Below, piece by piece: positions 7,712 through 61,560 of a stretch of DNA of 64,000 bases (positions within the stretch are counted from its first letter, which is position 1; each line of letters starts with the position of its first letter). Source of the stretch: Bacilli bacterium (GTDB taxonomy: Bacteria; Bacillota_I; Bacilli_A; RFN20; CAG-826); contig JAILIP010000006.1 of assembly GCA_024695235.1 (NCBI GenBank), positions 7,378 to 71,377 on the forward strand, read 5' to 3'. The position numbers were made by a program, and so were the translations under genes. The notes beneath the pieces are model-generated. The model saw only the letters and a list, made by a program, of their open reading frames with translations, was not told the origin of the DNA and did no database searches.

Positions 7712-7799
7712 TACTATGATTATAGCGCGTTAGCTTTGCGAGCGCTTGAAATATTCGGGTGCCTGTATTATATTAAAATCATCAATTCGGAGGAAAAAT

Positions 7800-9437
7800 A
7801 TGTCATTTAAATTACAATACCTTGGCAAAGAAAAAGAGTTTGATAAGAATGTCAAACTCCTCGACTTAATTGACAACAAAGATAAAAGCATCATCGCTGC
7901 TCGTGTTAACAACCGTGTTCGTGAGTTAACATACGAAGTATACTACGATGCAAAAATCGAATTCATCACCGTTAAAGATGTCGATGCTATTAAGATTTAT
8001 GAATCTTCACTTCGCTTCGTCATCGCGATGGCGTTTGCTCGTGTTTATCCAGATGTCAAAATTAGACTTTGCTATAACGTTTCTCGTTCAATCTTCGTCC
8101 AATTATTAGAAGGACAAAAGAGCACACCAGAAATGGCTGAAAAGATTGAAAAGGAAATGAGAAAAATCGTCGAAGCCGACTATCCACTTAAACGCTTTGT
8201 CGTTAGTAAAGAAGAAGCTAAAGACATCTATGTTAAAAACCACCTCGAAGATAAACTCGCAATTCTTCAATATCGTCCAGAAAAGACCATCCATCTTTAT
8301 GACTGTGATGGCTACTTGAACTATATGTATTCACATATGGTTCCATCCACTGGATACTTAAAAGATTTTGCTGTTAGATTCTATCATCCAGGTATCATTG
8401 TTCAATATCCACGTGCAGAAGCCTGTGGAAAGATTCCTGAATTCGTTGACGCTCCAACATTCGGTAAGACTCTTAAAGAATCACACGAATGGGGTGTTAT
8501 CGCTGGTGCAGACTCAGTTGCAGGCATCAATGCTCATATTAAACGTGATGGTGTAATTGACTTTATTCAATTATGTGAAGCACGTCATAATAGAATGCTC
8601 GCTCAACTTGGCGACATGATTGAAAGCGATATGGAAAATATCAAACTCATTTGTATCGCTGGTCCATCAAGTTCAGGCAAAACAACATTCGCTAATAGAC
8701 TTAGAGTAGAACTCCTCTCAAGAGGACTTAAACCAGTTCGTATTTCTATTGATGACTACTACCTACCAAAGTCACAAGCTCCAAAAGATGAAGATGGAAA
8801 ACCAGATTTAGAGAGTATCGAAGCTCTTGATATTGAAGGTTTCAACAAAGATATGCTCGCCCTTATCTCTGGTGAAGAAGTTCAACTTCCAAAATTCGAT
8901 TTCAAACTTGGACATCGTGTTCCAGGTAGAGTTCTCAAAATGGGTGAAAACGAACCAATTATCATTGAAGGTATCCACGCCTTAAATGAACGTATGACAA
9001 CACTCATTCCAAAGCATCAAAAGTTCAAAATCTTCATCGCTCCACAAGCTCAAATTAACTTAGATAATACCAACCCAATTTCAATTACAGACTTACGTCT
9101 ACTTCGTAGAATTGTCCGTGATTACCAATTCCGTGGTGCATCTGCTGAAGAAACAATGTCCATGTGGCCAAGCGTTAGAAGAGGCGAATTCAAGTGGATT
9201 TATGACACTCAAGAAGGTGCTAATTATGTATATAACTCCATGCTCTCATATGAATTATGTGTCATGAAGAAATATGCAATGCCACTTCTTCAAGCAATCG
9301 AACAAGAAAATCCATACTTCCCAATCGCTGAAAGACTTATCAGAATGCTCAAGCACTTTGATGATATGCCAGATGAATGGGTACCATGTAACTCCCTTAT
9401 GAGAGAGTTCATCGGTGGATCTTGCTACGCTGACTAA
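7800..9437 (+). CDS. Uridine-kinase/PRK-family P-loop kinase fused to an N-terminal TGS/ThrRS-like domain
   Basis: P-loop GPSSSGKTT followed by a udk-like block. The N-terminal ~280 aa are TGS-like. Start set at the ATG at 7800, preceded by GGAGGA. The track start at 7746 is TTG. Confidence 0.7.
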   Translation: MSFKLQYLGKEKEFDKNVKLLDLIDNKDKSIIAARVNNRVRELTYEVYYDAKIEFITVKDVDAIKIYESSLRFVIAMAFARVYPDVKIRLCYNVSRSIFVQLLEGQKSTPEMAEKIEKEMRKIVEADYPLKRFVVSKEEAKDIYVKNHLEDKLAILQYRPEKTIHLYDCDGYLNYMYSHMVPSTGYLKDFAVRFYHPGIIVQYPRAEACGKIPEFVDAPTFGKTLKESHEWGVIAGADSVAGINAHIKRDGVIDFIQLCEARHNRMLAQLGDMIESDMENIKLICIAGPSSSGKTTFANRLRVELLSRGLKPVRISIDDYYLPKSQAPKDEDGKPDLESIEALDIEGFNKDMLALISGEEVQLPKFDFKLGHRVPGRVLKMGENEPIIIEGIHALNERMTTLIPKHQKFKIFIAPQAQINLDNTNPISITDLRLLRRIVRDYQFRGASAEETMSMWPSVRRGEFKWIYDTQEGANYVYNSMLSYELCVMKKYAMPLLQAIEQENPYFPIAERLIRMLKHFDDMPDEWVPCNSLMREFIGGSCYAD

Positions 9438-10101: not shown

Positions 10102-11184
10102 CTAATTAATTTTACCGAATACTTCTTTTTCTTTTAGATAGATATTCTTGAGATTTGTGTAATACACACTCTTCATGATCATGAAGCGTTTGTGTTCTTC
10201 TTCAGATACTGATTTTAGATACATCTTCGAGAAGATGTCTTCTAGTCTAAAGAATGATTCGTATAGATTGATAATTGCGATGTGGAAGAAATATGCATCG
10301 CGTGAATAGATTAGAAGTGGCGATGAGTGAGCAATCTCACTAGCCATCTCGTATGTCTTTGAATATTGGCTAAGTCCTGCAAGACGTTCCACTCCATCGC
10401 GGAAATTAAATTTGAACATTGGATCATCTTTGTAGTTTGGAATAGCAATTAACCAACCGTATTCAATGAATTTCTTCATATCTTTGCTCTTGAGATCCAA
10501 AGCCTTCATTTCTTCTTTTATCTTTACAAAGATACTATCGACTTTTTCTTTGTCTTGGATAGCTCCACGGAACGCCATAGTGTATTCCATATGTTTTAAA
10601 TATTCTTCAACTAATGGTTTCCCGTATTTAGTGAGCAGCACCAAGATACATTCACTTTCATGGAGTGTTCTCCATGTGGAGAAAGCTTCTGTTTCAAAGC
10701 CTTGTGTCATTAATGAGGTGATAGCCTTACACATGGCAAGTCCTTTATAAAGGATATCCACCACTAATGTTTCGCTTGGTTTTCTTTTAAGTGCTCTATT
10801 AAGAACGCCTAATGTGAAGTTAAGATATGTCTCAAGAGTCGAAATTTGAGGAGCAAACTTGCTAACTTGAGTTGTGTTTTTATATGAAAGATGCTCATTT
10901 GTGAAATATTTATCAAGGGCAATGGATGCTACTTTGCCTAAATATACTTCATCATCTTCTTTAAAATCTGGCTCATTATCTTTGATAAAGCCATATTCAT
11001 TGACGATATATAAAATTAAAACAACAGGGTTTAAAGGAACAACACGACCAAAAACGTTGTTTTCAATTAGCTCTTTAGCGCCTTCATCAGCAACTTCATA
11101 AGCTTGATAAACATAGTCTTTATTTAATTTAGGATTTACGCGTAAGTCTTCATACACGCGATCGAATTGTTCTTTTGAGATCAT
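10102..11184 (-). CDS. Hypothetical cytosolic, apparently all-alpha protein (360 aa)
   Basis: Long intact ORF whose stop lies within a hairpin plus T-run (10084-10103). Its start codon lies 1 nt downstream of the glpK stop codon on the minus strand. No motif I can assign. Confidence 0.6.
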   Translation of the reverse strand: MISKEQFDRVYEDLRVNPKLNKDYVYQAYEVADEGAKELIENNVFGRVVPLNPVVLILYIVNEYGFIKDNEPDFKEDDEVYLGKVASIALDKYFTNEHLSYKNTTQVSKFAPQISTLETYLNFTLGVLNRALKRKPSETLVVDILYKGLAMCKAITSLMTQGFETEAFSTWRTLHESECILVLLTKYGKPLVEEYLKHMEYTMAFRGAIQDKEKVDSIFVKIKEEMKALDLKSKDMKKFIEYGWLIAIPNYKDDPMFKFNFRDGVERLAGLSQYSKTYEMASEIAHSSPLLIYSRDAYFFHIAIINLYESFFRLEDIFSKMYLKSVSEEEHKRFMIMKSVYYTNLKNIYLKEKEVFGKIN

Positions 11185-12834: not shown

Positions 12835-15800
12835 ATGAAATCTCTCTCCAAAAAAATATTAACCCCAATTCTAGCAATTTCTTTAGTTGCTAGTGCCGCT
12901 ACTGCTATTGGCGTAGCTATTACAGCAGCAAATAGAGAAACGACTGAAGCACGTGCTGCATCAGCGCATGATTTGGATACACTTTATTCAGCATGTGAAA
13001 CAGCTGTTACAAACAAAAGTGAATCTAGCCTTTGGAGTGCTGTAAAGACAGCAGCTGCTGATGGATATTCTTCTCTTGGCTATGATGGTTTATACACTGC
13101 ATACGCATCGACAGATGTTCAAAATAACAAGATTGTTGATATGTATTCAAACACATCTTCGTTTTCGACCAGTGATAAATGTGGTAATTATTCTGATGAA
13201 GGTGATTGCTACAATAGAGAACATACAATTCCACAATCTTGGTGGGGTGGCGGAACAAGCGCTCAAGGATGCGATATTTATATCGTTTATCCAACAGACG
13301 GAAAGATTAATGGTATGCGTTCTAATTATGCCTTTGGAGAGGTTAGTTCAGCAACATCTCAATCATCTGGCGGATATTCCAAATTAGGCCCATCAAAATT
13401 GACCACTGGTAATGGATATTCATGGGGTTATAGTGGTACAGTTTTCGAAATAAACGATGAATATAAGGGTGATATGGCTAGAGTATATTTCTACGCAATC
13501 ACAAAATGGCCAAACGTTGACTTTAGTCAAGCAACTGAAGCTACTTCGACTTTTACTGACGCAACGGGTTCATCTCGTACATCATCAAATAATTATGGTT
13601 TAACAAATTATGGTCTAAACTTAATGCTTAAATGGCATAAACAAGATCCTGTAAGCACTTGGGAAGAAACCAGAAATGGGAAAGCTGAATTAAAGCAAGG
13701 TAACAGAAACCCTTATATTGATCACCCAGAATATGTTGAATATCTCTGGGGTGATGGTTTTGATGGTGGTTCATCATCGACAGACCCATCTGCTTCAATT
13801 TCACCATCATCACCCTCTGTTACTGTCGATGACACTGTTGAATTAACAGCTACTTTAAGTAATGTTTCCGATGCCAGCAAAATTACTTGGACATCAGGAA
13901 GCGAAGCAAATGCCACTGTCGTAAAAGGCACCACCACAACAAGTCAGTCAAAAGCTACTGTAACTGGTGTTGCTGCTGGTAGTGCAACAATTAATTGTAA
14001 ATACGATGGCACAACAATAGGTTCAGTTACTGTATCGGTCACTTCTTCAGGCGGAGGGGATACCTCAAATGCTACATTTACTGCAGGAACAGATGTTGGA
14101 TCAAAAACTGGGGCTACAGGTGACCAAGGAGAAGATTCTGTAAGTAAAAACGGGATTACAATGTCGACTACTAACGGTGCATTTGCTGCATCTGGACAAT
14201 ATAGAGTATATAGCGGGGCTAGTTTAACATTTTCTTCCTCGAACAATATCACAGCAATTGAATTTTCTGGAACTGAATCAAAACCATTGTCTGGCCTAGC
14301 AACTCAAACAGGTTCATATTCATACAATAGCAGCACACACGGAGCATCTTGGTCTGGCAGCGCAACATCCGTCACATTTACGGCATCTGCTCAGACAAGA
14401 TTTTCGCCTGTTTCTGTAACTGTTGAATCTTCATCAACAAAAACATTAAGCAGTATTTCATTAAATACCGACAATGTCACAAAAACATTCACTGTTGGTG
14501 ATACATTCTCATCAAATGGGCTTGTTGTTACTGCTAATTATGACAATGGTACTTCCGCGACAGTAACCCCAAGCATAACTTCTCCTGATATGTCTAGCGC
14601 TGGAACTAAAACAGTTACAGTTAGTTATACCGAAGGTAGTGTCACAAAAACAGCTACTTATACAATTACTGTAACTGCAGCTTCTAAGGTTCTCAGTTCA
14701 ATATCTGTAGAAACCGCTCCTTCAAAACTCACATATACTGAAGGGGATTCATTCGATCCAACAGGTTTAGTTATTAATAGGGTTTACACTGTATCCTCTT
14801 ATAACGATACTTATACATACGCAAATCACACATCGGAATTCTCATTCTCACCAGCAACAAATTTAAGCACTAGTGACTCTAGTGTCACTATCACTTATGG
14901 TGGTAAAACATGCACTCAAGCAATTACTGTAAATTCATCTGGCGGATCAACTGATACGAAAACAGATGTTTTATTCGCGAAAGGTTTTGGCGAATACACA
15001 ACTAACAAATATTCAAATGCTGGTACTGACTATTCAGCCGTCGCAAATAGTACTAACGCCACAGGCACAACTTACAAGTTGCAAGTTTTCAATGGATCTA
15101 ATGGGCAAATTAAAGGCAGTGATAACTCTACTGCATCAAACAACTTTAGTGCTAGAAATTCAACAACATATTCTAACTACTATATTTCCAAAGTCGAATT
15201 GACCGTTAAAACAGGAACAATAGATGGCTCATCATCCAGCAGAAGTCTTGTTTATATTGGCTCATCCGCGTTTGCAAACCCAAGCAGTTCTGCTCCATCA
15301 GGAACTTCGATCAATGCCTCCCCTGCATCTTCAAGTCAAACAACACTCACTTGGACAAACACTAACCAAAGCGCCGCTTATTTTATCCTTTACAATTTGA
15401 AAACATCAGGTTCTGCATACTCAGATAGTTCGTCCACAGCATTAAAAATCACATGGACAGAAAAGTCTGGATCAACACCAGTTACCCCAACACTTGAAAG
15501 TATCACACTCGATACAACTAGCGTCGATAAATCATTTGAGGTGGGAGATACATTCTCATACGCAGGTTTAGTTGTCACAGCACATTATAGTGATCTTTCT
15601 ACAGCAACAGTGACACCTACTAGTGTCTCAACTCCAGACATGTCTACTGCAGGACAAAAAACAATCACCGTCACTTACGAAGGAAAGGAAGCTACATACA
15701 CAATTAATGTAACTGATCCTTCTGGTGGCGAAGCCACAGAGGCAAAAGTTAATCTTGTCTTTAGTGAAAAAGGATATGCAAATCAAGCACAACTCACTTC

Positions 15801-16524
15801 ACACAACTTGTACGAAAAAAATAATCAAACAATTACATTCACTTGCGACAAAGGATCAAACACCAACGCTCCAAAATACTACACTACAGGTGCGGCTGGA
15901 AGATTCTACGGAAGCAATACTTTCACAATCACAAGCTCAAAAGCAAATATCACCGGAATTGTTTTATCGTTCAGCTCTGGTGAAAATGAGAACGAAATTA
16001 CAGCTGATAGTGGAACATATTCAAACGGAACCTGGACAGGTACAGCTGTTTCTTCAGTCACTTTCACCATCGGTGGTACAAGTGGCCATCGTAGAATTGC
16101 TTCCATTGGCGTAGATTACTTTGGAGCATCTGAATTTGCTGATAACTTCAACAGCACAATTGGATGTAATTCCCAAGGAACATCTGAACCATCTGGAAAA
16201 AGCAATTGGTCTACATATAAGAGCAACTACAACAATATGTTGTTCACTGAAGATCAAAACACCTTGAAAGGTGCTTCGTTGCTTGAAAATGGTACAAACA
16301 TTGAAAAAGCAATGTATACATACAACTTCATCATTCATAAATATGGCACTTCAAAATACGAAAACTTTATGAATAGAACAATTGTTAATCCTAACGGAAT
16401 GCCGGGCAACTCAATTGTTTCAATGAGTAAAGATAATACTATTGCAATTATTGTCATTATGAGTGTTATCTCAGTAACATCATTAGGTGCTCTAATTGCA
16501 ATAAGAAAACGTAAAGAATACTAA
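12835..16524 (+). CDS. Surface-anchored EndA/NucM (endonuclease I)-family nuclease fusion protein, 1229 aa
   Basis: N-terminal signal. Nuclease motifs CYNREHTIPQSWW, PTDGKINGMRSNYAFGEV, GDMARVYFY, QGNRNPYIDHPE. One Big_2-like domain and three GDxFxxxGLxVTAxY Ig-like repeats. Two copies of an unassigned beta module. C-terminal helix-rich module, a TM helix, and tail RKRKEY. Confidence 0.85.
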   Translation: MKSLSKKILTPILAISLVASAATAIGVAITAANRETTEARAASAHDLDTLYSACETAVTNKSESSLWSAVKTAAADGYSSLGYDGLYTAYASTDVQNNKIVDMYSNTSSFSTSDKCGNYSDEGDCYNREHTIPQSWWGGGTSAQGCDIYIVYPTDGKINGMRSNYAFGEVSSATSQSSGGYSKLGPSKLTTGNGYSWGYSGTVFEINDEYKGDMARVYFYAITKWPNVDFSQATEATSTFTDATGSSRTSSNNYGLTNYGLNLMLKWHKQDPVSTWEETRNGKAELKQGNRNPYIDHPEYVEYLWGDGFDGGSSSTDPSASISPSSPSVTVDDTVELTATLSNVSDASKITWTSGSEANATVVKGTTTTSQSKATVTGVAAGSATINCKYDGTTIGSVTVSVTSSGGGDTSNATFTAGTDVGSKTGATGDQGEDSVSKNGITMSTTNGAFAASGQYRVYSGASLTFSSSNNITAIEFSGTESKPLSGLATQTGSYSYNSSTHGASWSGSATSVTFTASAQTRFSPVSVTVESSSTKTLSSISLNTDNVTKTFTVGDTFSSNGLVVTANYDNGTSATVTPSITSPDMSSAGTKTVTVSYTEGSVTKTATYTITVTAASKVLSSISVETAPSKLTYTEGDSFDPTGLVINRVYTVSSYNDTYTYANHTSEFSFSPATNLSTSDSSVTITYGGKTCTQAITVNSSGGSTDTKTDVLFAKGFGEYTTNKYSNAGTDYSAVANSTNATGTTYKLQVFNGSNGQIKGSDNSTASNNFSARNSTTYSNYYISKVELTVKTGTIDGSSSSRSLVYIGSSAFANPSSSAPSGTSINASPASSSQTTLTWTNTNQSAAYFILYNLKTSGSAYSDSSSTALKITWTEKSGSTPVTPTLESITLDTTSVDKSFEVGDTFSYAGLVVTAHYSDLSTATVTPTSVSTPDMSTAGQKTITVTYEGKEATYTINVTDPSGGEATEAKVNLVFSEKGYANQAQLTSHNLYEKNNQTITFTCDKGSNTNAPKYYTTGAAGRFYGSNTFTITSSKANITGIVLSFSSGENENEITADSGTYSNGTWTGTAVSSVTFTIGGTSGHRRIASIGVDYFGASEFADNFNSTIGCNSQGTSEPSGKSNWSTYKSNYNNMLFTEDQNTLKGASLLENGTNIEKAMYTYNFIIHKYGTSKYENFMNRTIVNPNGMPGNSIVSMSKDNTIAIIVIMSVISVTSLGALIAIRKRKEY

Positions 16525-16540
16525 TTTGATATATAAGTGA

Positions 16541-16569
16541 GGCGTAGCAATTGCTACGTCTTTCTTTTA
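16541..16569 (+). terminator. Intrinsic terminator after nuclease gene 1
   Basis: Stem GGCGTAGC / GCTACGTC with an AATT loop, followed by TTTCTTTT. Confidence 0.75.
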
Positions 16570-16598
16570 TATTCACTTTGTATTAGAATATACACGTT

Positions 16599-19500
16599 AT
16601 GTTGTTAAAAAATGTTGTTAAAAAATTATTAGTCGCATCACTATTTGTATCTACTCTTAGTGTTGCAGGTATTGCTATTCATAGCCATGCTAATCCTAAT
16701 GAGGTAGTTAAAGCATCTGCTTTAGCAGATAACTACTGGAAAAGTATCACCGATACAGGTGATGGTGATACCCTCATGTCTGATTTAAATAGTAAGATTT
16801 CCGTTGCTACTACTATTAGCTATGGAGGCCTATGGGATGCATATAAAACATCCGATATCGTTCCAGGTACTACAAATAAGATTTGGGATATGTATGGAGG
16901 ATTCTCTTTTACAGTTACCTCTAACCAATGTGGTTCATATAAAAAAGAGGGTGACTGTTATAATAGAGAACACTCTGTCCCTAAGTCATGGTTCGGTGAA
17001 TCCACCCCTGCTTATTCAGATTTAGTACATCTTGTTCCAACGGATGGAAAGATAAATGGTATGCGTGGCAATCAACCTTTTGGTGAGGTTGCTACAGCTT
17101 CATATACATATAGCTTCGGTGAAAGAAAAGATGGAAATGGTGATGTATATCAAAAAGCAGGGAAAAGCCAATTAGGCACTGCAAAGAATATCAATGGTGT
17201 CACTGCTCCATCTGTGAAGGTTTTCGAGCCAGATGACCAATATAAAGGCGATTTTGCAAGAATTTATTTTTATTTCGCAACTAGATATCAAGGTTGGGCT
17301 ACATCTACTGATAATGGTAAATATATGTTCAACACTTCGTTCCCATATATGACAAACTATGGCTTAGCCCTTATGAGGAAGTGGCACGCTCAAGATCCTG
17401 TATCTCAAAAAGAGATTGATCGTAATGATGCAATCGAATCTCTTCAAGGAAATAGAAACCCATACGTTGATCATCCAGAATGGGCAAACACTATTTTTGG
17501 AAGTAATTATGATGCATCTGGTTCTAATGAACCATCATTAAAGGTTGCTCCAGGTGAAGCTGAGATTGGAGTTGGTGAAACATTAACTCTAACTGCTTCT
17601 CCTAAAAATATTGAAGGCACTAATTATGCATGGAATATAACTGAAGGTAGTGATGTAGTTGAAATCACATCAACAGTATCTAATATGGCAGATATCCACG
17701 CTTTAAAAGAAGGCACTGCTAAAGTTCAATGCACCTATGGTGGATATAATAGAACTGTCACTATCGTAGTAAGCGAAAATGCATCAACTGAAGTTGATCC
17801 ACCAGAGGATGATGGAACAATCGAAATAACTAAAGATAACTTTGTTAGTGCCTATCCATCAGGAGAAGCGACATTCTCACATGCTGCTACTGGTGTAGTA
17901 TTCGGTTACGAAGAAGTTGCTAACTACAACCCAATTCAATTTAGAGCATACGAAGGTGTTTTCTATAATAAGACAACACTCGGACAAATCGTCAGTATTC
18001 ATGTTGAGCAATATAGCACTTACAGTTATTCAAATTTAAGAATTGGTTTTGGAAACACTCCAGTTGATGCGATGAATAATGCTGATACTGAGACATATTC
18101 TCAACCAGCAAGCACCACTGCCATCAGCGGTTCTATGATGCCATATTTCTGCATCAAAAATTCTAGCAGCGCAACACGTATTACAAAGATAATTATTGTC
18201 TACGACAATACATTTGTTAATGAAGACTCTTTAGCATTCGGCAACAAGAACATTACAGTTCGCTCTGCAGAAACTGAAGAATTGTTAGTTGCATCAACTA
18301 GACCAATTACATCATGGACTAGTAGTGACACAACATTAGCTATAGTTGATAATGACGGCACGCTTCATGCTTTAAAAGTTGGTGAAGTTGTTATCACAGC
18401 AAGTGATGGAACACTATTTGATACATGCTCCGTCACCATAATTAAAGGTGATGTTGTTATCACAGGTTTATCGCTCAATGAATCAACTCTTGATTTTGAT
18501 TTAAAAAATGAAACAAAAACTGCTCAACTAGAAGCAATATTTGAAGGCCAAAATGTCTTCGATGAAACTGTTACATGGTCAAGCAATAATGATGCTGTTG
18601 CTACTATTAGTAGCACAGGACTAGTGACTGCTGTTAGTGTTGGTAAAACTGTTATCACTGCTACATCAGATACAGATAACTCATTTAAAGCAAGTTGTGT
18701 TGTGAGTGTTATTAATACTGGCTCTGAAGGTGACTGGGAAGTTAGTTCTGTTGCCTATAGAAGTGCATATTTTGGAAACGGATATGATGAAACAAGCAAT
18801 TCTTCATACACTACAACATGGTATTCAACAAATGCAGAGGAAGATTTCCAATATGAAATCAAATACGGGAACACAAACAGTAAGAGTTGGAATTACGTTA
18901 TGTTTGGGCCAAAAAATACAACATCGACCGGACACGTAAAAACAACTTCTGCAATAGATAAACCGATTGGAAGAGTGGCTATTAACATTAATTCAATTAC
19001 GCAATATGGCACAATTGATTCATTGCAATTGCTAACATCAGTGTCATCAAATTTTGCAAATGCAACAACATATGATTTTGATTATTCGGATGTTGGTGAA
19101 ACAAGTGTATATATCGATGAACCGGAAGCAAATCTCTACTACAAAGTAGAAATCACATGTACATCAAACCAAGGCAGCAAAGGCAAAAACGGAATTGCAA
19201 GTTTAAGCTATGTCAAATTCTTCGATGCTCAAAGAGGCGCTGTAGTTATTAATGAAGCTGAGGAATTTGCCAATGAATTCATGGGTCTCATCACATGTGA
19301 TGAAACTGGTGTAGATAGACCAGTATTCCAAGAAGGATATGGATGGAATTATTTTGCTGAGAGATTTGATGATTTAGATCCGACCGAACAAGCTGTTCTT
19401 CATGATGCCGATCCAATTGAAAATAGTAGTGATATTATTGAACAAGCCATGTATAGATATGAATATATCATTGCTAAATATGGCATATCTTCATATCCAA

Positions 19501-19658
19501 ACTTCATTAATAGAAATCTAACAATAAGTGTTTCGTCAAATACATTGTTTAAGACTATTTCTAGTGAGAACACCACCGCCATTATTGTTATTATTGCATT
19601 AGTAGGTGTAACATCAATTGGCACAGTGTTAACGCTCCGTCGAAAGAAAGAAAATTAA
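16599..19658 (+). CDS. Surface-anchored EndA/NucM-family nuclease fusion protein, 1019 aa
   Basis: Signal peptide. Motifs CYNREHSVPKSWF, PTDGKINGMRGNQPFGEV, GDFARIYFY, QGNRNPYVDHPE. At least three Big_2-like domains. C-terminal module (IIEQAMYRYEYIIAKYG), a TM helix, and tail RRKKEN. Confidence 0.85.
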   Translation: MLLKNVVKKLLVASLFVSTLSVAGIAIHSHANPNEVVKASALADNYWKSITDTGDGDTLMSDLNSKISVATTISYGGLWDAYKTSDIVPGTTNKIWDMYGGFSFTVTSNQCGSYKKEGDCYNREHSVPKSWFGESTPAYSDLVHLVPTDGKINGMRGNQPFGEVATASYTYSFGERKDGNGDVYQKAGKSQLGTAKNINGVTAPSVKVFEPDDQYKGDFARIYFYFATRYQGWATSTDNGKYMFNTSFPYMTNYGLALMRKWHAQDPVSQKEIDRNDAIESLQGNRNPYVDHPEWANTIFGSNYDASGSNEPSLKVAPGEAEIGVGETLTLTASPKNIEGTNYAWNITEGSDVVEITSTVSNMADIHALKEGTAKVQCTYGGYNRTVTIVVSENASTEVDPPEDDGTIEITKDNFVSAYPSGEATFSHAATGVVFGYEEVANYNPIQFRAYEGVFYNKTTLGQIVSIHVEQYSTYSYSNLRIGFGNTPVDAMNNADTETYSQPASTTAISGSMMPYFCIKNSSSATRITKIIIVYDNTFVNEDSLAFGNKNITVRSAETEELLVASTRPITSWTSSDTTLAIVDNDGTLHALKVGEVVITASDGTLFDTCSVTIIKGDVVITGLSLNESTLDFDLKNETKTAQLEAIFEGQNVFDETVTWSSNNDAVATISSTGLVTAVSVGKTVITATSDTDNSFKASCVVSVINTGSEGDWEVSSVAYRSAYFGNGYDETSNSSYTTTWYSTNAEEDFQYEIKYGNTNSKSWNYVMFGPKNTTSTGHVKTTSAIDKPIGRVAININSITQYGTIDSLQLLTSVSSNFANATTYDFDYSDVGETSVYIDEPEANLYYKVEITCTSNQGSKGKNGIASLSYVKFFDAQRGAVVINEAEEFANEFMGLITCDETGVDRPVFQEGYGWNYFAERFDDLDPTEQAVLHDADPIENSSDIIEQAMYRYEYIIAKYGISSYPNFINRNLTISVSSNTLFKTISSENTTAIIVIIALVGVTSIGTVLTLRRKKEN

Positions 19659-19671
19659 TCAAATACAATAA

Positions 19672-19697
19672 AATGCAGTTTATTCTGCATTTTTTTA
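19672..19697 (+). terminator. Intrinsic terminator after nuclease gene 2
   Basis: Stem AAATGCAG / CTGCATTT followed by a T-run. Confidence 0.7.
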
Positions 19698-19796
19698 TTA
19701 TATTCGATAGAATCGATACTTTTTTGATATCGCCAACAAAACAAACATTATTAATGTTATACTATATGTACAAATTGTATTTATAGGTAGTTTCTT

Positions 19797-22700
19797 ATGA
19801 AAAAGTGTTCTAAATTATTAATCGCTGCCGGACTTACATTCGCGGTAGCATTTTCCTCGATTGTTTCAATTGCTTCAACCAAAAAAGAAGTTATTGAGAC
19901 GGAAGCATACACGAATGGTGATGCTGCAACATATTACTCCAGCATCGGAAGTAAGACTGGTAGTGAATTATTAAGTGCACTTCAAGGCTTAAACTCAACG
20001 AAACTACAACATAGAATTGGCTATAGCAATATGCCATCATATTTCACTACTACAGATCCTGGCACAAGCAGTGGTGAAGTTTCTGGCTTTTATAGCGGAA
20101 CATCCAAAACATATAGCGGAAATATGAATAAAGAACACGTTTGGCCAGCAAGTAGAACGGTATTAGGAAGAGACAAAGATCCTCTTGAAGATGATATGCA
20201 TATGGTTCGCCCAACAATCACTAATGAAAACGGCAGTAGAGGCAATTCATTCTTTGTTCAAGGAAAGAAAAGCTCAACAGATGGTTGGGATCCTGCAATG
20301 GAGAGTTTTGGCGATGCCACATATCGTGGAGATGCTGCAAGAATTATCTTTTACTGCGTAGCAGCTGATTCACAATTGTCTTTAGTCGATGAAGAAAATG
20401 ATAGCACGTCAAACCACACCATGGGCAAACTATCAGATATGCTCCAATGGAATATCACGTATGCTGTAAACAATAGAGAAAAAGTTAGAAATGAAGCTGT
20501 TGAAGAACTTCAAGGTAATAGAAACCCATTTATTGATCACCCAGAATACGCATGTAGAATTTGGGGAAATACTAACGATACCACAAAAGAAATTTGTTCA
20601 CATGATACATCTGGCACAGCACCTACAAGCTTAACACTCAACGTAACTTCAACATCCTTAGGTTATGGTAGAACTCTTCAACTAAGTGTCACACCAACAC
20701 CTAGCACGGCCAGCGGTGCTGTTTCTTGGAGTGCAAGTAACTCTAAAGTAAGTGTAGATGCTAATGGTTTAGTCACAGCTGGTACAGAATCAGGATATGT
20801 TCAAATTACTGCTACTTCATCTTTAGATAATTCGGTTACTGCAACATGTCAAATCTATGTAACTGAGCCAGATCCTGTAGCGATGACAGGTGTTTCTCAT
20901 AGCAGTGTTTCAGTTGGTTTAAACAAAACAGTTACGTTATCGCCAACAGTTTCACCATCTGATGCATATCCTTTACCTAGCTATACTTATCAAAGCAATA
21001 ACACTTCAATTGCTACCGTTTCTAACGGAGGTGTTGTAACAGGTAAAGCAGGTGGCTCAACCACAATTACAATTACCGCAACGCAAGGATCAATTACTAA
21101 AACATGCAATGTTTCTGTCACTGTCACAACAGAACCTGTTGTTGTTACTGATATGTCTCAATTATCAAATGACGACACAGTAATTGTTAAAACAGATTCA
21201 GGAACTGGCGTTACTGGTTGGAATAATAATAAAGACGCAACAGTTTCTACTACGTCATCCGAATGGAAAGAATTTGTTGTAAAAGATAAAACAAGTAGTG
21301 GCTTTAAACTATATGATTCCACTGCCAGCCAATATATCGCTGCTCCAGGTGGTAATGAATTTAAATATGGCTCAACAGGCGGAACATGTTCAGTCGATTC
21401 TTCTGGACACTTGATGTGTAGCAATAGATATCTTTGTGTTAATGGAACTAACTATCGATTCTATACGGCAATTGGAAGCTACAGACCATTCTATGTATAT
21501 ACAACTGGTGGTTCATCAACACCTGCAAGAACTTTAGAAGCTATTGTTATAAGTGGCACACTTACAAATACTCAATATGCTGGTTTTGCATTCGATCCAA
21601 CTGGTTTAATAGTCACTGCTTGCTATGATGATGAGTCTGATGAGGATGTTACAAATCAAGTAACATGGTCGCCATCAACATTAACTGCTTCCACCACATC
21701 TGTTACTGCCAGCTATGAGGGAGAAAGCGATAGCATCAACATCACTGTTGTTACACCAACCCTAACAGGCATTTCTACAACTGGGCAAACGACTGCATAC
21801 ACTATCGGAGATACATTCTCATATGATGGAATATGTACCGCTACATATGATAATGGCTCTCAAAAAACAGTTACTCCAACAGTTGATTCTAGTGGAGTTA
21901 ACATGAGCGCTGCGGGCACATATACTGTTTCACTATCATATAGCGAAAATGACGTGACAAAGACTACTTCTTACAGTATTACTGTAAGTGAGACTCCATT
22001 TGTCAATTCTATCGAACAATGTTATTCAATGAGTGATGAGCAAACATTAAGCGATACTGTATATGGCTTATATGTCGGTTCATTTGATGGACATAACCCA
22101 GTTATTATGAATGGTGAGTTCGGAATATTGTTATTTACAACAAGTTCAGCAACTCTTCCAAGTTGGACTATAAATGAAACATATGTCAAGGTTACTGCTG
22201 GTAAAATTGATATCTTTAACAATTTATACGAAATTAAAAATTACACCGCTTCCACTGCTTCTAGTAGTGAAGCTCAAGCAAATGTATTACCAGTTTCAAC
22301 TTATTCTGTAACCGGAAATGAAAGTGTAAGTGATTTAACAATCGCTAGTAGATTATGTCTTGTTACAGGTACTGTAAAAACAGCATATAACAAAGGAAAT
22401 GCTACATTGACAGTCAATTCAAAAGATGTTGTAGTCTATGTTAAATCCGATTATCAATCAGCGTTAAGTGGTGTTTTAGGAACAGTAGGTAATCAAGTTA
22501 CATTAAAAGGTTTCACAACATTCTACACATCATTCCAAGTAAATGTCTTTGAAAGTATTGGCGTTATTGAATCATATACCGCTGAGGACTTTGCTGAAGA
22601 CTTGATGAGTATGACAAACACCATTTGTGCTACAAGCACCAATAAGAATTCTGATCTTTCACCTGTGTGGGTAACATTAGAAATGGAAAAATATTCCACT

Positions 22701-22973
22701 CTTCTAGATAGTGAAAGGACCACTCTTAAAGATGTAGTTGCTTCTAATAGTGGTACTGCTATTCAAATTGCTATGGCAAGATACGATTTTATCGTAACTC
22801 ATTACTCATCATGCAATGATTTCATTCAACGTAATCCATCACTTCAAGTGAATAATGGCTTCCTAAAATCTATTGATAATAGCACTACTATCACAATTAT
22901 TGTTGTGCTAAGCACCATTTCATTAACAGCTATCGGTGGATTTGTGTTCTTGAGAAAACGCAAAGAAAACTAA
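19797..22973 (+). CDS. Surface-anchored EndA/NucM-family nuclease fusion protein, 1058 aa
   Basis: Signal peptide. Motifs NKEHVWPAS, ENGSRGNSFF, GDAARIIFY, QGNRNPFIDHPE. Two Big_2-like and two GDxF..G(L/I) Ig-like repeats. C-terminal module (IQIAMARYDFIVTHY), a TM helix, and tail RKRKEN. Confidence 0.85.
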   Translation: MKKCSKLLIAAGLTFAVAFSSIVSIASTKKEVIETEAYTNGDAATYYSSIGSKTGSELLSALQGLNSTKLQHRIGYSNMPSYFTTTDPGTSSGEVSGFYSGTSKTYSGNMNKEHVWPASRTVLGRDKDPLEDDMHMVRPTITNENGSRGNSFFVQGKKSSTDGWDPAMESFGDATYRGDAARIIFYCVAADSQLSLVDEENDSTSNHTMGKLSDMLQWNITYAVNNREKVRNEAVEELQGNRNPFIDHPEYACRIWGNTNDTTKEICSHDTSGTAPTSLTLNVTSTSLGYGRTLQLSVTPTPSTASGAVSWSASNSKVSVDANGLVTAGTESGYVQITATSSLDNSVTATCQIYVTEPDPVAMTGVSHSSVSVGLNKTVTLSPTVSPSDAYPLPSYTYQSNNTSIATVSNGGVVTGKAGGSTTITITATQGSITKTCNVSVTVTTEPVVVTDMSQLSNDDTVIVKTDSGTGVTGWNNNKDATVSTTSSEWKEFVVKDKTSSGFKLYDSTASQYIAAPGGNEFKYGSTGGTCSVDSSGHLMCSNRYLCVNGTNYRFYTAIGSYRPFYVYTTGGSSTPARTLEAIVISGTLTNTQYAGFAFDPTGLIVTACYDDESDEDVTNQVTWSPSTLTASTTSVTASYEGESDSINITVVTPTLTGISTTGQTTAYTIGDTFSYDGICTATYDNGSQKTVTPTVDSSGVNMSAAGTYTVSLSYSENDVTKTTSYSITVSETPFVNSIEQCYSMSDEQTLSDTVYGLYVGSFDGHNPVIMNGEFGILLFTTSSATLPSWTINETYVKVTAGKIDIFNNLYEIKNYTASTASSSEAQANVLPVSTYSVTGNESVSDLTIASRLCLVTGTVKTAYNKGNATLTVNSKDVVVYVKSDYQSALSGVLGTVGNQVTLKGFTTFYTSFQVNVFESIGVIESYTAEDFAEDLMSMTNTICATSTNKNSDLSPVWVTLEMEKYSTLLDSERTTLKDVVASNSGTAIQIAMARYDFIVTHYSSCNDFIQRNPSLQVNNGFLKSIDNSTTITIIVVLSTISLTAIGGFVFLRKRKEN

Positions 22974-22987: not shown

Positions 22988-23019
22988 AAGAAAGGTAGTC
23001 ATTGCTGGCTACCTTTTCA
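22988..23019. terminator. Bidirectional terminator between nuclease gene 3 and pepP
   Basis: An ~11-bp stem (AAAGGTAGTCA / TGGCTACCTTT) flanked by A-rich and T-rich runs, between convergent genes. Confidence 0.7.
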
Positions 23020-26997: not shown

Positions 26998-27073
26998 GGA
27001 TCATTGGTCTATCGGTTTATGATGCCTCCCTGTCACGGAGGCGAGAGGGGTTCGACTCCCCTATGATCCGCCA
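26998..27073 (+). tRNA. tRNA-Asp(GUC)
   Basis: Acceptor GGATCAT/ATGATCC, anticodon loop CTGTCAC, T-loop GGTTCGACTCC, encoded CCA. Confidence 0.9.
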
Positions 27074-27080
27074 GGAAGCT

Positions 27081-27154
27081 GCAGATGTAGTTCAGTGGTA
27101 GAACATTAGCCTTCCAAGCTAATTATACGGGTTCGATTCCCGCCATCTGCTCCA
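27081..27154 (+). tRNA. tRNA-Gly(UCC)
   Basis: Acceptor GCAGATG/CATCTGC, anticodon loop CTTCCAA, T-loop GGTTCGATTCC, encoded CCA. Confidence 0.9.
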
Positions 27155-28309: not shown

Positions 28310-28903
28310 ATGAAATTATTAGTTGCTACAAATAATGATCACAAGATTCATGAGTACAAAAAGATGTTCACTCAATACGGAATTGAAGTAGTTGCTCCGA
28401 AGGATCTTAACATTCATGATGATCCAGTTGAAGATGGTGATTCTTATGAGGCAAACTCCTTAATTAAGGCTAAAGCCTTACAAAAGTATTCTGATCTTCC
28501 AATTATCGCTGATGACTCCGGTTTAAATGTTGTTGCCTTAAACAATTTCCCAGGCATTTTCTCATCCAGATTTGCTAAAGAAAATGGCGGTAATGCAGTA
28601 GCTAATTTAAAACTAATTGAGATGCTAAAACCACACGAAGATAAAAGCGCATTTTTCACATGTGTCATCACTTTGTTAAATGTTGAAGATAAACCGGTTC
28701 AATTCAAAGGCATTTGTCCTGGATATATTCTTGATAAACCAGAGGGTGAAGGTGGCTTTGGATATGATCCTGTTTTCTATTCAAATAAAGCCAAAATGTG
28801 CTTTGGAATAGCTCCTGAAGAAGTAAAAAACAAATATTCTCATAGAGCGGAGGCTCTTAAACAATTAATCGAGTATTTAAAAGAAAAGAAACTTATCAAG
28901 TAA
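28310..28903 (+). CDS. rdgB: dITP/XTP pyrophosphatase (Ham1/RdgB)
   Basis: 197 aa. MKLLVATNNDHKIHE..., DDSGL, FGYDP and SHR motifs. Confidence 0.92.
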   Translation: MKLLVATNNDHKIHEYKKMFTQYGIEVVAPKDLNIHDDPVEDGDSYEANSLIKAKALQKYSDLPIIADDSGLNVVALNNFPGIFSSRFAKENGGNAVANLKLIEMLKPHEDKSAFFTCVITLLNVEDKPVQFKGICPGYILDKPEGEGGFGYDPVFYSNKAKMCFGIAPEEVKNKYSHRAEALKQLIEYLKEKKLIK

Positions 28904-32478: not shown

Positions 32479-33465
32479 ATGTATACACGTTCACTTAAAG
32501 ACTATTTGAAAAGTCTTAAATTCTATTTTACTCCATTAGGAGTAATGTCAATCTTCTGCCTGATTGGTTTTGTTGTTTTTATCAAAGGAACTACAACAGC
32601 TATTTCTGACTTATTCAGTGATGTTGGAAAGATTGTTGGTGAAACATCAATTCAATTTAAATGGGGAGAAATTTGGCAAACGATCTGGGGCGCTATTAAA
32701 GCAGTCGATTGGAGTGGAGGCATCATTGCTGGCATTAAGTCAATGCTAAACAAAGATTGGCTCACATCCACATTATATGCCGCTTTAGGTGATGTCTTTG
32801 GTGATCTTAAAGATGTCGTTGATCAAGTCATGAGTGCTATTAGCATTTGTGTTGGTAAAATTGCTACCTATTTTGTTACTGCTTTAGTATTAAACTTAGT
32901 TGGTATTGTTGTCGGATACATCATTCTATCCTTCTTAGTAAGAAGAGAACTCACTCAAATCACAATTGGAAAATTGCTTTTATTAAGCTTTATTGATTTA
33001 GGTGTTGTTGCTTCAACATTTATTATCGCTAATCTCATGGGAAAATTATGGGGTCCATTAGGATTCATATTCTTCCTCATTGGAATTGTTGGAGGAGAAG
33101 TATTCTCTGTCTTAGAAGCATTCTGGTTCTTCGGCAGAGGCAAAGTCACTCTTAAAGAGTTAATTAAACCTAAGAATGTTGGTTTCCTCCTTTTAGGAGA
33201 CTTAACAGTTATTGCTATCGGAATTGTGTTATTTGTCATCCTATTCTTTGTCGTTAATCCAATTATTGCAATTTATCTTGGAGTACCACTTGTAGAACTC
33301 ACCACTATTGTAATTGGTCTTACAGGGGAAACTTATGTTTTAGAAGCTATCGGTTACGATAAAGATGAATGGAAAAAAGAACATAAGAAACTTAAAAAAG
33401 CTAAAAAGGCTTCAAAGAAAGCAGAAAAAATAGAAAAGAAAGCTCTTAAACACAAAGAAGCGTAA
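32479..33465 (+). CDS. Hypothetical polytopic membrane protein with a Lys-rich C-terminal tail
   Basis: 328 aa with at least 5 hydrophobic segments and tail KKEHKKLKKAKKASKKAEKIEKKALKHKEA. AGGAGG RBS. Confidence 0.6.
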   Translation: MYTRSLKDYLKSLKFYFTPLGVMSIFCLIGFVVFIKGTTTAISDLFSDVGKIVGETSIQFKWGEIWQTIWGAIKAVDWSGGIIAGIKSMLNKDWLTSTLYAALGDVFGDLKDVVDQVMSAISICVGKIATYFVTALVLNLVGIVVGYIILSFLVRRELTQITIGKLLLLSFIDLGVVASTFIIANLMGKLWGPLGFIFFLIGIVGGEVFSVLEAFWFFGRGKVTLKELIKPKNVGFLLLGDLTVIAIGIVLFVILFFVVNPIIAIYLGVPLVELTTIVIGLTGETYVLEAIGYDKDEWKKEHKKLKKAKKASKKAEKIEKKALKHKEA

Positions 33466-33467
33466 GG

Positions 33468-34850
33468 ATGAAAAAACTATTTGGGCAAATTGATCTTACC
33501 AAAGGTAATATTGCAAAGAATCTCGTATTGTTTGCATTACCATTTTTCATCTCATATTTTCTTAACTCACTTTATTCAGCAATTGATCTAATTTTCATTG
33601 GTCAATTCTCTGATACATATAACATTGCCGCAGTTAGTAGCGGCACAACTATCATGTTTGCCATTAACTCTGTTATCGCTGGTTTAGCTACTGGTGGGAC
33701 AGTTGTTATCGGTCAATATTTTGGTGCTAAAAACAAAGACATAAATGTAGTTACAAAGAATCTTGTTATCTACATGGCAATCGTTGCGATATCACTTTTA
33801 GTGATAATGCTTGGATTATTCTTCTTTATTCCTAAGTGGATGCAGCTAGATGAAGGCGCACTTAGAATCTCAAGAATGTATCTATTTATCCTTGTTCTAG
33901 GGATACCTTTATACACCGGATACACAACTGTATCAGCAATACTTAGAGGACTCGGAAATTCATTCGCTCCATTTATCTTCTTTTCACTTGCTGTTGTCAC
34001 TAATATTGGTCTAGACGCTTTGTTTGTAATTGTCTTAAAACAAGGCGCTGTTGGAGCAGCCTTTGCAACATTGATTGGACAAGCAGTTGGACTTATATCA
34101 TCTTTGGTCTATCTCTTCTTAAAGAAACTCCCTTATAAAGTCAGTTTTAGAAATCTTAAAATGGATAGATCTATCATTAGAGAAATTGTTAAATGTGGAT
34201 TACCTATCGCAATTCAAGATGGATTGGTTATTATTTCATTTGCAATAATTCTAGCTGCAGTTAGTGTTAGAGGCGTTAATTACACTTCTGCTGTTGGAGT
34301 AACAGATAGAGTCACTAGCTTTGGTTTTGTACCACTAAGTGCAATTGGTAGTGCAGTATCCACTGCTACTGCTCAAAACATGGGAGCAGGAAACGTTAAT
34401 AACGCTAAAAAGTACATGCTCTGGGGGCTACTAGTATGCATCATCAGCGGCGGTATCATTGGCATTTTGTGCCAAGTTATACCAGAACAGCTTGCATCAA
34501 TATTCGCCGGAGGCAACATAGAGGCAAGGGATATTGCTGTTCCATACATCAGATCCACATCGCTTGATATATTCGTGTGCACCTTAGTGTTCCCAATTAA
34601 TGCGATATTTATTGGATCAGGAAAAACAATATTTGCGATGTCTCAAAACTTAGGTGTCACTTTCGCTGTGCGTGTACCTGTAGCACTCGTGCTCGCAGTA
34701 GTCCTAAACGCATCTATGTATGTCGTAGGACTTGCATATGCTATATCAACCGTATTTTCTCTTATCGCCTGTATCATTTACTATTTCATGCGAAGATGGG
34801 AAAATACAAAAACATTATCAGTCAACATTGTTGAGGAGGAAAAAGCATGA
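33468..34850 (+). CDS. MATE-family efflux transporter
   Basis: 460 aa, 12-TM pattern, and N-terminal GNIAKNLVLFALPFFISYFLNSLYSAIDLIFIGQ typical of MATE. Confidence 0.85.
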   Translation: MKKLFGQIDLTKGNIAKNLVLFALPFFISYFLNSLYSAIDLIFIGQFSDTYNIAAVSSGTTIMFAINSVIAGLATGGTVVIGQYFGAKNKDINVVTKNLVIYMAIVAISLLVIMLGLFFFIPKWMQLDEGALRISRMYLFILVLGIPLYTGYTTVSAILRGLGNSFAPFIFFSLAVVTNIGLDALFVIVLKQGAVGAAFATLIGQAVGLISSLVYLFLKKLPYKVSFRNLKMDRSIIREIVKCGLPIAIQDGLVIISFAIILAAVSVRGVNYTSAVGVTDRVTSFGFVPLSAIGSAVSTATAQNMGAGNVNNAKKYMLWGLLVCIISGGIIGILCQVIPEQLASIFAGGNIEARDIAVPYIRSTSLDIFVCTLVFPINAIFIGSGKTIFAMSQNLGVTFAVRVPVALVLAVVLNASMYVVGLAYAISTVFSLIACIIYYFMRRWENTKTLSVNIVEEEKA

Positions 34851-35239
34851 GACCAGTTATTCTAACAATTATGTGTATGGTAGAAGATAATAACGGGAGA
34901 ATTCTCGTAGAGAATCGTCTTAAAAAAGATTGGCCAGGATTAACTTTTCCCGGAGGACATGTTGAAGATGATGAAACATGTGAAGAAGCCTGCATTCGTG
35001 AAATAAAAGAAGAGACAGGCTTAGAAGTTAGCGATCTTATAGAGATGGGCCACATTGAATGGAATAATGAATTCGGTGATGGTCTACGTCACTTCTCAAT
35101 GTTATATAAGACAAAAACTTATAAAGGAAAACTTAAATCTTCTAAAGAAGGTGAAGTGTTCTTTGTTGATAAAAAGGATTTAAACAAGTATCCATTCTCA
35201 AACGACTTTGATAAGATACTTGCGATAATGCTTAAGTAA
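34847..35239 (+). CDS. NUDIX hydrolase
   Basis: Nudix box GGHVEDDETCEEACIREIKEETGLEV. ATGA overlap with the MATE gene. Confidence 0.9.
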   Translation: MRPVILTIMCMVEDNNGRILVENRLKKDWPGLTFPGGHVEDDETCEEACIREIKEETGLEVSDLIEMGHIEWNNEFGDGLRHFSMLYKTKTYKGKLKSSKEGEVFFVDKKDLNKYPFSNDFDKILAIMLK

Positions 35240-39850: not shown

Positions 39851-40819
39851 ATGAAAAAAATCGCAAAAATATTACCTTTATTTGCCGCATTGCCATTAAT
39901 GGCAGGTTGTAGCTCAAACAAAGTGAAAACAATTGAATTCCAAAACAATGGTTCTCAACTTGAATTTGAAGCATTTAAAGAGGCAATTGAAGAAGTTAAA
40001 TTAGAAAACGAATTCTATAAAGAAAGCGATAGTGTTCTTCGTCCAATGATTAAGACAACTTATCGTGCAAATACAAGTATAATCGATAACCGTCGTAATG
40101 ACAAAATTATCTCTCAAAGCGATGAGCAAAAAATCACCAATTTGCAAGATAAATACGACACATCTTCTCTAGTTTCTCAATCAACAGAAGTTGAACATAG
40201 TTCAAAGAGTGCAAAAGATAGTTACGGCAGAAGCTCATCTTCCGCCTCATCTAAAAAGATCAATGGCCTTCAAAGAACTTTCCATGGCGAGCACGTCTAT
40301 TTTGCCTCTGTTGACCATATTAGAAAAGAATATGGTCCATATCAAATTATCGATGGTGACCATAAGGCCGAAGATGTCTTTGAAAACTGGATCAAATTCG
40401 GTGCAAGAAGCTCAGTTAAAGAATTCGAATTACACGAATATGTCGGAGAGGACGAAGAAGAAGCAAAACGTTACACCTACTATCGTAACGAAAATGTCTT
40501 CACAATCGAATATTCTCTCGACGAGGAAGAAGAATTCAAATCCACAGTTGGAGAAGAAGAATTGGTTGATTATGTAATATCAACAAATATTCGTCACAAA
40601 TATCAAATCGACTTCTCTAATGGTCGCTTCTCATATAAGTGTAGCGAAGAAGATAATATCACCACTTCATACAAAAGATCATACGATCAACACATCATTG
40701 GTGACACGCTTAACACAAGCGATAAGAATTACGCAAACGTGTCATTCGAAACAGGTGATGTGAAGCTCAAAGAAACTGATTTAAGCAAATACGTTAAGAT
40801 TGGTTTCCCACAAGACTAA
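39851..40819 (+). CDS. Hypothetical lipoprotein
   Basis: Signal peptide with lipobox LMAGC, AAAGGAG RBS, and an acidic soluble domain of unknown family. Confidence 0.7.
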   Translation: MKKIAKILPLFAALPLMAGCSSNKVKTIEFQNNGSQLEFEAFKEAIEEVKLENEFYKESDSVLRPMIKTTYRANTSIIDNRRNDKIISQSDEQKITNLQDKYDTSSLVSQSTEVEHSSKSAKDSYGRSSSSASSKKINGLQRTFHGEHVYFASVDHIRKEYGPYQIIDGDHKAEDVFENWIKFGARSSVKEFELHEYVGEDEEEAKRYTYYRNENVFTIEYSLDEEEEFKSTVGEEELVDYVISTNIRHKYQIDFSNGRFSYKCSEEDNITTSYKRSYDQHIIGDTLNTSDKNYANVSFETGDVKLKETDLSKYVKIGFPQD

Positions 40820-40865: not shown

Positions 40866-40968
40866 AAAATTTCCAGATTAGGAAATTATAAATTGAAATA
40901 AAATGTTGTTGAATCTATATTTATATAGTGTTAAAATTGACAAGCAATCTATAAAAGGAGATAGGAAA

Positions 40969-61380: not shown

Positions 61381-61456
61381 GGATGTTTAGCTCAGTTGGG
61401 AGAGCATCGCCTTTACACGGCGGGGGTCAGGAGTTCGAGCCTCTTAACATCCACCA
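61381..61456 (+). tRNA. tRNA-Val(UAC)
   Basis: Acceptor GGATGTT/AACATCC, anticodon loop TTTACAC, encoded CCA. Confidence 0.88.
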
Positions 61457-61476
61457 TTATCTAAAAAAGCGTATGT

Positions 61477-61560
61477 GGAGGAATAGCGAAGCGGCCAAAC
61501 GCGGTTGACTGTAAATCAATTCCTTAGGGTTCGGTGGTTCAAATCCACCTTCCTCCACCA
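61477..61560 (+). tRNA. tRNA-Tyr(GUA)
   Basis: Acceptor GGAGGAA/TTCCTCC, anticodon loop CTGTAAA, long variable arm, encoded CCA. Confidence 0.88.

Follow-up and report, generated by a model that had tools for sequence, protein, structure and literature searches.

Three consecutive plus-strand genes in a 64,000-nt stretch of the Bacilli bacterium assembly GCA_024695235.1 (contig JAILIP010000006.1, positions 7,378 to 71,377; hereafter the window), termed N1 (1229 aa; 12835..16524), N2 (1019 aa; 16599..19658) and N3 (1058 aa; 19797..22973), were found to encode members of the Endonuclease_1 family (PF04231; His-Me finger group 9) with intact catalytic motifs, as judged by profile and motif comparison. 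We consider it likely that their products are surface-tethered, sugar-nonspecific nucleases that break down nucleic acid outside the cell, probably as a nutrient source. The open reading frames (ORFs) agreed exactly, in number, strand, coordinates and length, with a first-pass annotation made by a model from the letters of the window, and were identical to NCBI entries MCR5332542.1, MCR5332543.1 and MCR5332544.1, all on a 113-kb contig and labelled 'MAG: endonuclease [Bacilli bacterium]' (MAG, metagenome-assembled genome). That annotation had also proposed a cell-surface nuclease, and this appears a sensible reading because each protein combines a putative signal sequence, Ig-like spacers, a C-terminal transmembrane (TM) anchor and a nuclease head in which the PF04231 catalytic motifs are intact.

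The nuclease heads occupy aa 73-299 of N1 (13051..13731), aa 57-294 of N2 (16767..17480) and aa 40-258 of N3 (19914..20570), with Pfam E-values of 3.3e-54, 1.1e-65 and 1e-22 and PF04231 bit scores of 184.6, 222.1 and 81.5 respectively, all above the curated cut-off of 25 bits; the N2 head was modelled with a predicted local distance difference test score (pLDDT) of about 80-90. This Pfam search, which the first-pass annotation had named as a check, also returned Big_2 and Big_3 domains. The four motifs listed in that annotation, N(R/K)EH..P.S, NG.R(S/G)N, GD.AR..FY and QGNRNP(Y/F)(I/V)DHPE, were each present in N1, N2 and N3. The catalytic His, which corresponds to the general base His80 of Vvn, and the Glu preceding it (NREH in N1 and N2, NKEH in N3) aligned with EWEH of the solved structure 2PU3, and the metal-ligand Asn loop (KINGMRSN, KINGMRGN and NENGSRGN, in gene order) with EVNGDRSN of Vvn and 2PU3, in which the ligand is Asn127 by Vvn numbering. 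Two solved structures of Endonuclease I, 2PU3 (4e-17) and Vvn 1OUP (1e-15), were matched by a profile built from 14 diverse heads, the alignment setting NREH opposite EWEH and the (K/E)(I/V)NG.R.N loop opposite EVNGDRSN. The N, E, H, N and R residues were invariant across the 14 heads, N1-N3 included, and the catalytic His and Asn were thus unsubstituted in all three copies.

The claim that every copy carries a complete nuclease domain failed for N3, whose head is divergent: its Pfam match (aa 100-250) covers only PF04231 profile positions 69-235, and it lacks the segments CG.Y..EGDCY and FEP.D, both of which N1 and N2 have. Against the E. coli-type deoxyribonuclease I equivalog NF011716, the three proteins scored 26-30 bits, below the 372-bit cut-off; by these scores N1-N3 are members of the EndA superfamily and not EndA orthologues.

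Between the head and the C-terminal anchor, each protein carries 600-800 aa of beta modules. In N1 these are an Ig-like (Big_2-like) domain (aa 315-404, 13777..14046; 2.3e-8 to the first Ig segment of N2, itself modelled as a beta-sandwich), a divergent A-type beta module belonging to no Pfam family (aa 405-533, 14047..14433), two Big_3 domains assigned by Pfam (aa 534-702, 14434..14940), module B (aa 703-878, 14941..15468), which recurs in the homologues P0046 and P0064, another Pfam Big_3 domain (aa 882-962, 15478..15720; best stretch aa 898-959) and an A-type beta module with the motifs PKYYxTGxAxRxY and GGxSGHRRI (aa 963-1096, 15721..16122). N2 has an Ig-like domain found by profile comparison and in the model (aa 310-395, 17526..17783), the beta-sandwich module A (aa 398-540, 17790..18218; model pLDDT 80-88, no Pfam family), two Big_2 domains assigned by Pfam (aa 541-706, 18219..18716) and module B (aa 707-880, 18717..19238; no Pfam family, poorly modelled). 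In N3 there follow two Big_2 domains supported by Pfam and the model (aa 272-445, 20610..21131), module X (aa 446-573, 21132..21515; no Pfam family, no confident model), two Pfam Big_3 domains (aa 575-733, 21519..21995) and module Y (aa 734-925, 21996..22571), the second half of which shows a beta1-3/helix/beta4-5 order in a moderate-confidence model. Pfam thus assigns both Big_2 and Big_3 to N3, but only Big_3 to N1 and only Big_2 to N2. Ig-like modules were correctly predicted for all three proteins by the first-pass annotation, whereas the signature GDxF(S/D)xxGLxVTAxY, listed there as a separate type of repeat, belongs to the Big_3 domains.

Pfam at E<=5 gave nothing credible for modules A, B, X and Y or for the C-terminal helical module, and profile searches of PDB sequences with the unassigned modules and the C-terminal module returned noise only. 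AlphaFold (AF2) models from shallow alignments reached a mean pLDDT of 59 for N3 and 68.5 for N2, the regions modelled with confidence being the head, the Ig domains and, in N2, module A, together with the TM helix and the four-helix bundle preceding it; modules X, B and part of Y had no confident fold. Foldseek with the whole N2 and N3 models found only Ig-domain chains of surface proteins (LigA, S-layer SbsC, Sap), and as tandem-Ig matches dominate such whole-model searches, modules A, B, X and Y are not classifiable by them. An OB-fold was considered for module Y, since the strand and helix order in the moderate-confidence model would fit; hhalign against metagenome OB-fold domains gave <2% probability, and we keep it as a weak possibility.

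Surface proteins from rumen and gut metagenomes (loci L086-L165) also contain the A-type module, with the pattern PKYYxTGxAxRxY ... WTG ... GGxSGHRRI. Among 80 metagenome ORFs that carry it, Endonuclease_1 was present in 5, and 66 had a complete N-terminus without Endonuclease_1; it is placed N- or C-terminally in large proteins with BACON, OB-fold or CHB_HEX_C_1 domains. These 66 carriers rule out the module as a nuclease-specific DNA-binding unit, and by its distribution it is generic. The A-type module, modules B, X and Y and the C-terminal helical module are candidates for new domain families.

Hydrophobicity analysis in 19-aa windows revealed exactly two segments per protein, one at each terminus. 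The N-terminal segment is basic and hydrophobic in all three proteins, forms a helix in the N2 and N3 models and is long enough in N1 to be a signal anchor (about aa 1-41, 12835..12957, by sequence inspection; hydrophobic windows starting at aa 7-15). At the C-terminus, a TM helix of 22 residues leads into a tail of ~6 residues with 4-5 Lys/Arg, ending RKRKEY in N1 (helix and tail 16432..16521), RRKKEN in N2 (19554..19655) and RKRKEN in N3 (22878..22970), with the helix also present in the N2 and N3 models. Ahead of it lies a helical module of ~100 aa common to N1 (aa 1097-1198, 16123..16428), N2 (aa 884-985, 19248..19553) and N3 (aa 927-1027, 22575..22877), recognised by profile comparison and modelled as four helices at aa 886-961 of N2 and aa 929-1002 of N3; the first-pass annotation had noticed this shared C-terminal unit ending in a TM helix. 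The module has an invariant Cys and an RY..I..KY motif, and no counterpart was found in Pfam, NCBIfam or PDB.

When representatives (50% identity clusters) of 1.84 billion proteins were searched with a profile of the C-terminal module, 1985 matched at E<=1e-3, 798 of them at E<=1e-10, the module always ending about 30 residues short of the protein C-terminus. A TM helix and basic tail followed in 134 of the 139 best new matches, and Endonuclease_1 was present in only 62 of these 139. The nuclease-free matches with an intact signal-like N-terminus (n=42) included carriers of Big_2 (9), Flg_new (9), subtilase (3) and Big_3 (3) domains and a beta-helix protein. On this domain census the module is therefore a generic juxtamembrane anchor module of the lineage and not specific to nucleases. 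More tentatively, it might be an undescribed anchoring or stalk-base domain for varied exoproteins (nucleases, subtilases, Flg_new and Big_2 proteins) of uncultured, possibly wall-less gut Bacilli, possibly with a dedicated role, such as forming oligomers, docking near the membrane or being recognised by a sorting machinery. Other Endonuclease_1 surface proteins (P0014, P0017, P0048, P0070, P0075-P0078 and others) instead carry near their C-terminus the sequence 'GCGG(S/N)I(V/I)A(S/T)S' ahead of a TM helix with a basic tail, an ending which may be a distinct sorting signal.

Taken as a mechanism, each protein would be exported by Sec via its N-terminal signal sequence, and the single C-terminal TM helix would stay in the cytoplasmic membrane with its K/R tail inside, in type I topology. 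The four-helix module would then sit just outside the membrane, and the 6-9 beta-sandwich modules would form a spacer holding the N-terminal beta-beta-alpha-metal head away from the cell. At this distal position the head would cut extracellular DNA and/or RNA without sequence specificity. As in Vvn and EndA, the conserved His would serve as general base, and the Asn and Glu would bind the metal. The three different stalks would probably confer different reach or binding partners. The nucleic acid so harvested would most likely supply nucleotides, phosphate and carbon to this uncultured gut Bacilli bacterium, a nutritional role suggested by the 5'-nucleotidase gene of the window and by analogy with mycoplasmas, in which membrane nucleases and 5'-nucleotidase serve nucleotide salvage (PMC12115388, PMC11729948).

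The first-pass annotation had gone further and assembled a dedicated degradation and salvage system from other genes of the window. All of the genes named are real: a PRK/uridine-kinase-like gene (7746-9437), Ham1/RdgB (28310-28903), Nudix (34847-35239), Maf (45510-46055) and, on the minus strand, the C-terminal part of a gene with a 5'-nucleotidase C-domain (PF02872; 63361 to beyond 64000), whose N-terminus and any export signal lie outside the window. A dedicated system does not follow, since they are scattered over 64 kb amid housekeeping genes (ATP synthase, PFK, ProRS, TrpRS, RNase J, MetK, PGI, MgtE and similar). RdgB, Maf and Nudix are house-cleaning enzymes found in most bacteria, and only the 5'-nucleotidase fragment fits the salvage idea.

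Several points weigh against a nutritional surface nuclease. The putative salvage genes lie apart from N1-N3, and the N3 head, with two segments lost, could be weak or inactive, to judge from its alignment. The disulfide-forming Cys pattern of the proteobacterial Endonuclease I enzymes is not kept in the heads, which have 4 (N1), 2 (N2) and 2 (N3) Cys, those of N3 at non-equivalent positions; the conserved-Cys trait is a feature of the proteobacterial subgroup and not PF04231-wide. The substrate cannot be called as DNA or RNA because Bsn, of the same family, is an RNase (PMC5714182). Moreover, RNase J homologues trace the close relatives of the organism only to uncultured bacteria, which bear no finer label than Bacilli, Firmicutes or Erysipelotrichaceae. 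Related contigs bear sample names of the form TONG22-1_SAMN..., which we take to be buffalo gut; reduced, partly peptidoglycan-deficient Bacilli orders occur in such habitats (PMC10868615), and this host might belong to one of them.

A different main role for the same molecular mechanism would be remodelling of, or escape from, extracellular DNA (eDNA) matrices, by biofilm dispersal or by cutting eDNA nets or traps resembling neutrophil extracellular traps (NETs). Such a role is compatible with nutrition and does not exclude it, although we think it unlikely to be the principal one. Dns of Vibrio cholerae, of the Endonuclease I family, is reported to control biofilm architecture and NET escape (PMC3212620, PMC3764145), and an Ig-rich stalk would put the enzyme inside a matrix. 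However, the MAG is that of an uncultured, commensal-type gut organism not known to meet neutrophils, and no biofilm-formation genes were seen among the scanned ORFs of the window. NET escape, offered as an alternative by the first-pass annotation, is unmotivated for a gut MAG (the buffalo habitat being, as above, our assumption).

That N1-N3 serve primarily as adhesins, their Big_2, Big_3 and unassigned modules binding host, plant or microbial surfaces and the head being accessory, or degenerate in N3, would agree with the bulk of each protein (600-800 aa) being Ig-like or other beta modules, with the occurrence of the A-type and C-terminal modules mostly on non-nuclease surface proteins and with Big_2 and fn3 being named adhesion domains (PMC5714182). 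We nevertheless judge it improbable, as the head always occupies the distal, N-terminal end and the catalytic residues are invariant in N1-N3 and their homologues, which suggests selection for catalysis. The C-terminal TM helix and basic tail could instead be a cleaved sorting signal (sortase- or exosortase-like), leaving the mature proteins wall-linked or released, and the order of module, TM helix and extreme C-terminal K/R cluster, common to about 2000 protein clusters, does resemble known signals of this kind. We give this little credence, given that N1-N3 and 119 homologues contain no LPXTG-like motif, that an N-rich stretch takes the place of any conserved cleavage motif ahead of the TM helix, that no NCBIfam sorting-domain model matched N1-N3 and that no sortase-like gene was found among the scanned window ORFs, about 11 ORFs falling outside the scan. 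Finally, His-Me finger nucleases are frequent as toxin domains (PMC5714182), but a contact-dependent antibacterial toxin with its immunity protein is very improbable indeed and was rejected on anatomy, which refutes it weakly: the nuclease is N-terminal, unlike the C-terminal tip of polymorphic toxins, no small immunity-like ORF lies in the gaps of 74, 138 and 48 nt downstream of N1, N2 and N3, and no secretion-system genes are nearby.

The design of surface-tethered nucleases such as N1-N3 proved to be common. With N2 as query, >5000 database proteins matched, and the best 120 were nearly all Endonuclease_1 proteins of 580-1740 aa from metagenomes, mostly with Big_2 and/or Big_3. Most of the homologues share the C-terminal TM helix with its basic tail, which a type IX secretion system (T9SS)-like domain replaces in Bacteroidota-type relatives. 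Endonuclease_1 ORFs ranged from 272 to 1476 aa, with a median of 582 aa, in 80 listed genome loci, which were mainly from Bacteroidota (mostly at 40-50% identity) but included Acholeplasmatales, Bacilli and Vibrio; 13-14 of the 80 had 2-3 Endonuclease_1 genes together. The combination of Endonuclease_1 with fn3, LTD and Big_2 surface domains was already described in a 2017 classification of His-Me finger nucleases (PMC5714182). Giant tethered proteins in triplicate are therefore not unusual, as had been supposed; from the database matches, the locus counts and that classification, their size, tethering and multiplicity are typical of the family outside Proteobacteria, and N1-N3 add members to an abundant, already described protein class. 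No experimental study of multidomain Endonuclease_1 proteins with Ig-like modules was found in the searched literature.

In comparison with the proteobacterial Endonuclease I enzymes (E. coli EndA, V. vulnificus Vvn, V. cholerae Dns and V. salmonicida EndA), N1-N3 share PF04231 and the aligned E-H, Asn loop, GD.AR and QGN(R/H)NP elements; the proteobacterial enzymes are exported, as N1-N3 probably are. The proteobacterial enzymes are single-domain and soluble, with solved chains of 210-231 aa, whereas the heads of N1-N3 sit on 1000-1200-aa TM-anchored proteins; besides the divergent Cys pattern, pairwise similarity is low, phmmer aligning the C-terminal 40 residues only. Large wall-anchored nucleases of Gram-positive bacteria are also represented by B. 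subtilis YhcR, S. pyogenes SpnA and S. suis SsnA, which have accessory binding modules, LPXTG, and OB-fold together with EEP or SNase domains. N1-N3 are likewise large surface nucleases by prediction, but without LPXTG and without detectable similarity to the OB-fold. Closest in design are the multidomain Endonuclease_1 proteins with Big_2, fn3, LTD and Big_3 (PMC5714182), abundant in Bacteroidota and uncultured Bacilli, which combine the same head with Ig-like modules and a lineage-appropriate C-terminus, often in tandem: a T9SS-like C-terminal domain in Bacteroidota, 'GCGGSI...' and a TM helix in some Bacilli, and the helical module and TM helix in N1-N3. The mycoplasma membrane nucleases (MnuA, Mhp379, MAG_5040 and others) resemble N1-N3 in proposed function, being surface-bound sugar-nonspecific nucleases that feed salvage (PMC12115388, PMC11729948), yet have other folds (TNASE_3/SNase, EEP and YqaJ, with no Endonuclease_1 listed) and lengths of 250-646 aa, and those in PMC11729948 are membrane-associated lipoproteins without the C-terminal TM anchor and long Ig stalk of N1-N3.

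The identities between genes and between heads indicate that N1-N3 are old paralogues. Among themselves, their nuclease heads share 33-44% identity, while the N1 head is 62-64% identical to those of P0093 and P0097 and the N2 head 66-75% identical to many proteins from other organisms; each of the three architectures has collinear relatives in other organisms. The longest DNA repeat between the paralogues is 110 nt at 71% identity. The first-pass annotation had seen ongoing recombination here, on the strength of a near-identical segment in genes 1 and 3. An exact 16-mer, GAGATACATTCTCATA, does exist at 15545 and 21808, but the surrounding 34-nt stretches are only 68-79% identical, and since all that the 16-mer encodes is the GDTFSY motif of Big_3, in otherwise divergent sequence, it is no evidence of ongoing recombination; the short repeat and the closer resemblance of the heads to proteins of other organisms do not support it either. 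Recent gene conversion among N1-N3 was ruled out by the low DNA identity and the head comparisons. P0093 and P0097 carry C-terminal modules of the N3 type, P0097 also module Y; heads and tails have therefore recombined, albeit long ago. Metagenome contigs of close relatives keep the order glpK-N1-N2-N3-pepP, with an N2 orthologue at 85% identity; a further N2 orthologue (54% identity) stands in a different context with no N3 beside it.

The array is flanked by a divergent glycerol kinase gene on one side and a convergent Xaa-Pro aminopeptidase gene on the other, and its G+C content and GC3 (G+C at third codon positions) equal those of the rest of the window. Each gene was said to have its own terminator or promoter region, and a terminator-like hairpin was indeed found past each stop codon, at 16539..16562 (N1), 19670..19693 (N2) and 22990..23017 (N3), all on the plus strand. 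A Shine-Dalgarno-like motif was present at only 17 of 38 window genes. TATAAT-like boxes lie 6-10 nt before the start codons of the genes at 7133, 7711, 12673, 24880, 24929, 50320 and 53346, as well as of N2 (16599), which suggests leaderless or near-leaderless mRNAs. Elsewhere in the window, a DUF5677 protein is encoded directly downstream of glycerol kinase (10102-11184, minus strand) and a prolyl-tRNA synthetase with a ProRS-C_1 C-terminal domain at 35271-36707 (minus strand). There are 12 tRNA genes, in a six-gene cluster at 61381-62042 (Val, Tyr, Gln, Lys, Leu, Gln), at 26998-27154 and singly elsewhere, and five ORFs of 277-328 aa had no Pfam match at E<=1e-4 (32479-33465, 39851-40819, 40903-41736, 51642-52496 and 58164-59018).

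If N1-N3 do act as surface-tethered nucleases, an uncultured lineage of gut Bacilli would reach extracellular nucleic acid with stalked Endonuclease I heads, where mycoplasmas use SNase- and EEP-type membrane nucleases. This would help in annotating MAGs and in understanding how eDNA is turned over in the gut, and would leave knowledge of the enzyme family unchanged. The remaining interest lies in the uncharacterised modules, which may prove the more useful by-products, above all the C-terminal anchor module with its wide spread over about 2000 clusters at 50% identity.

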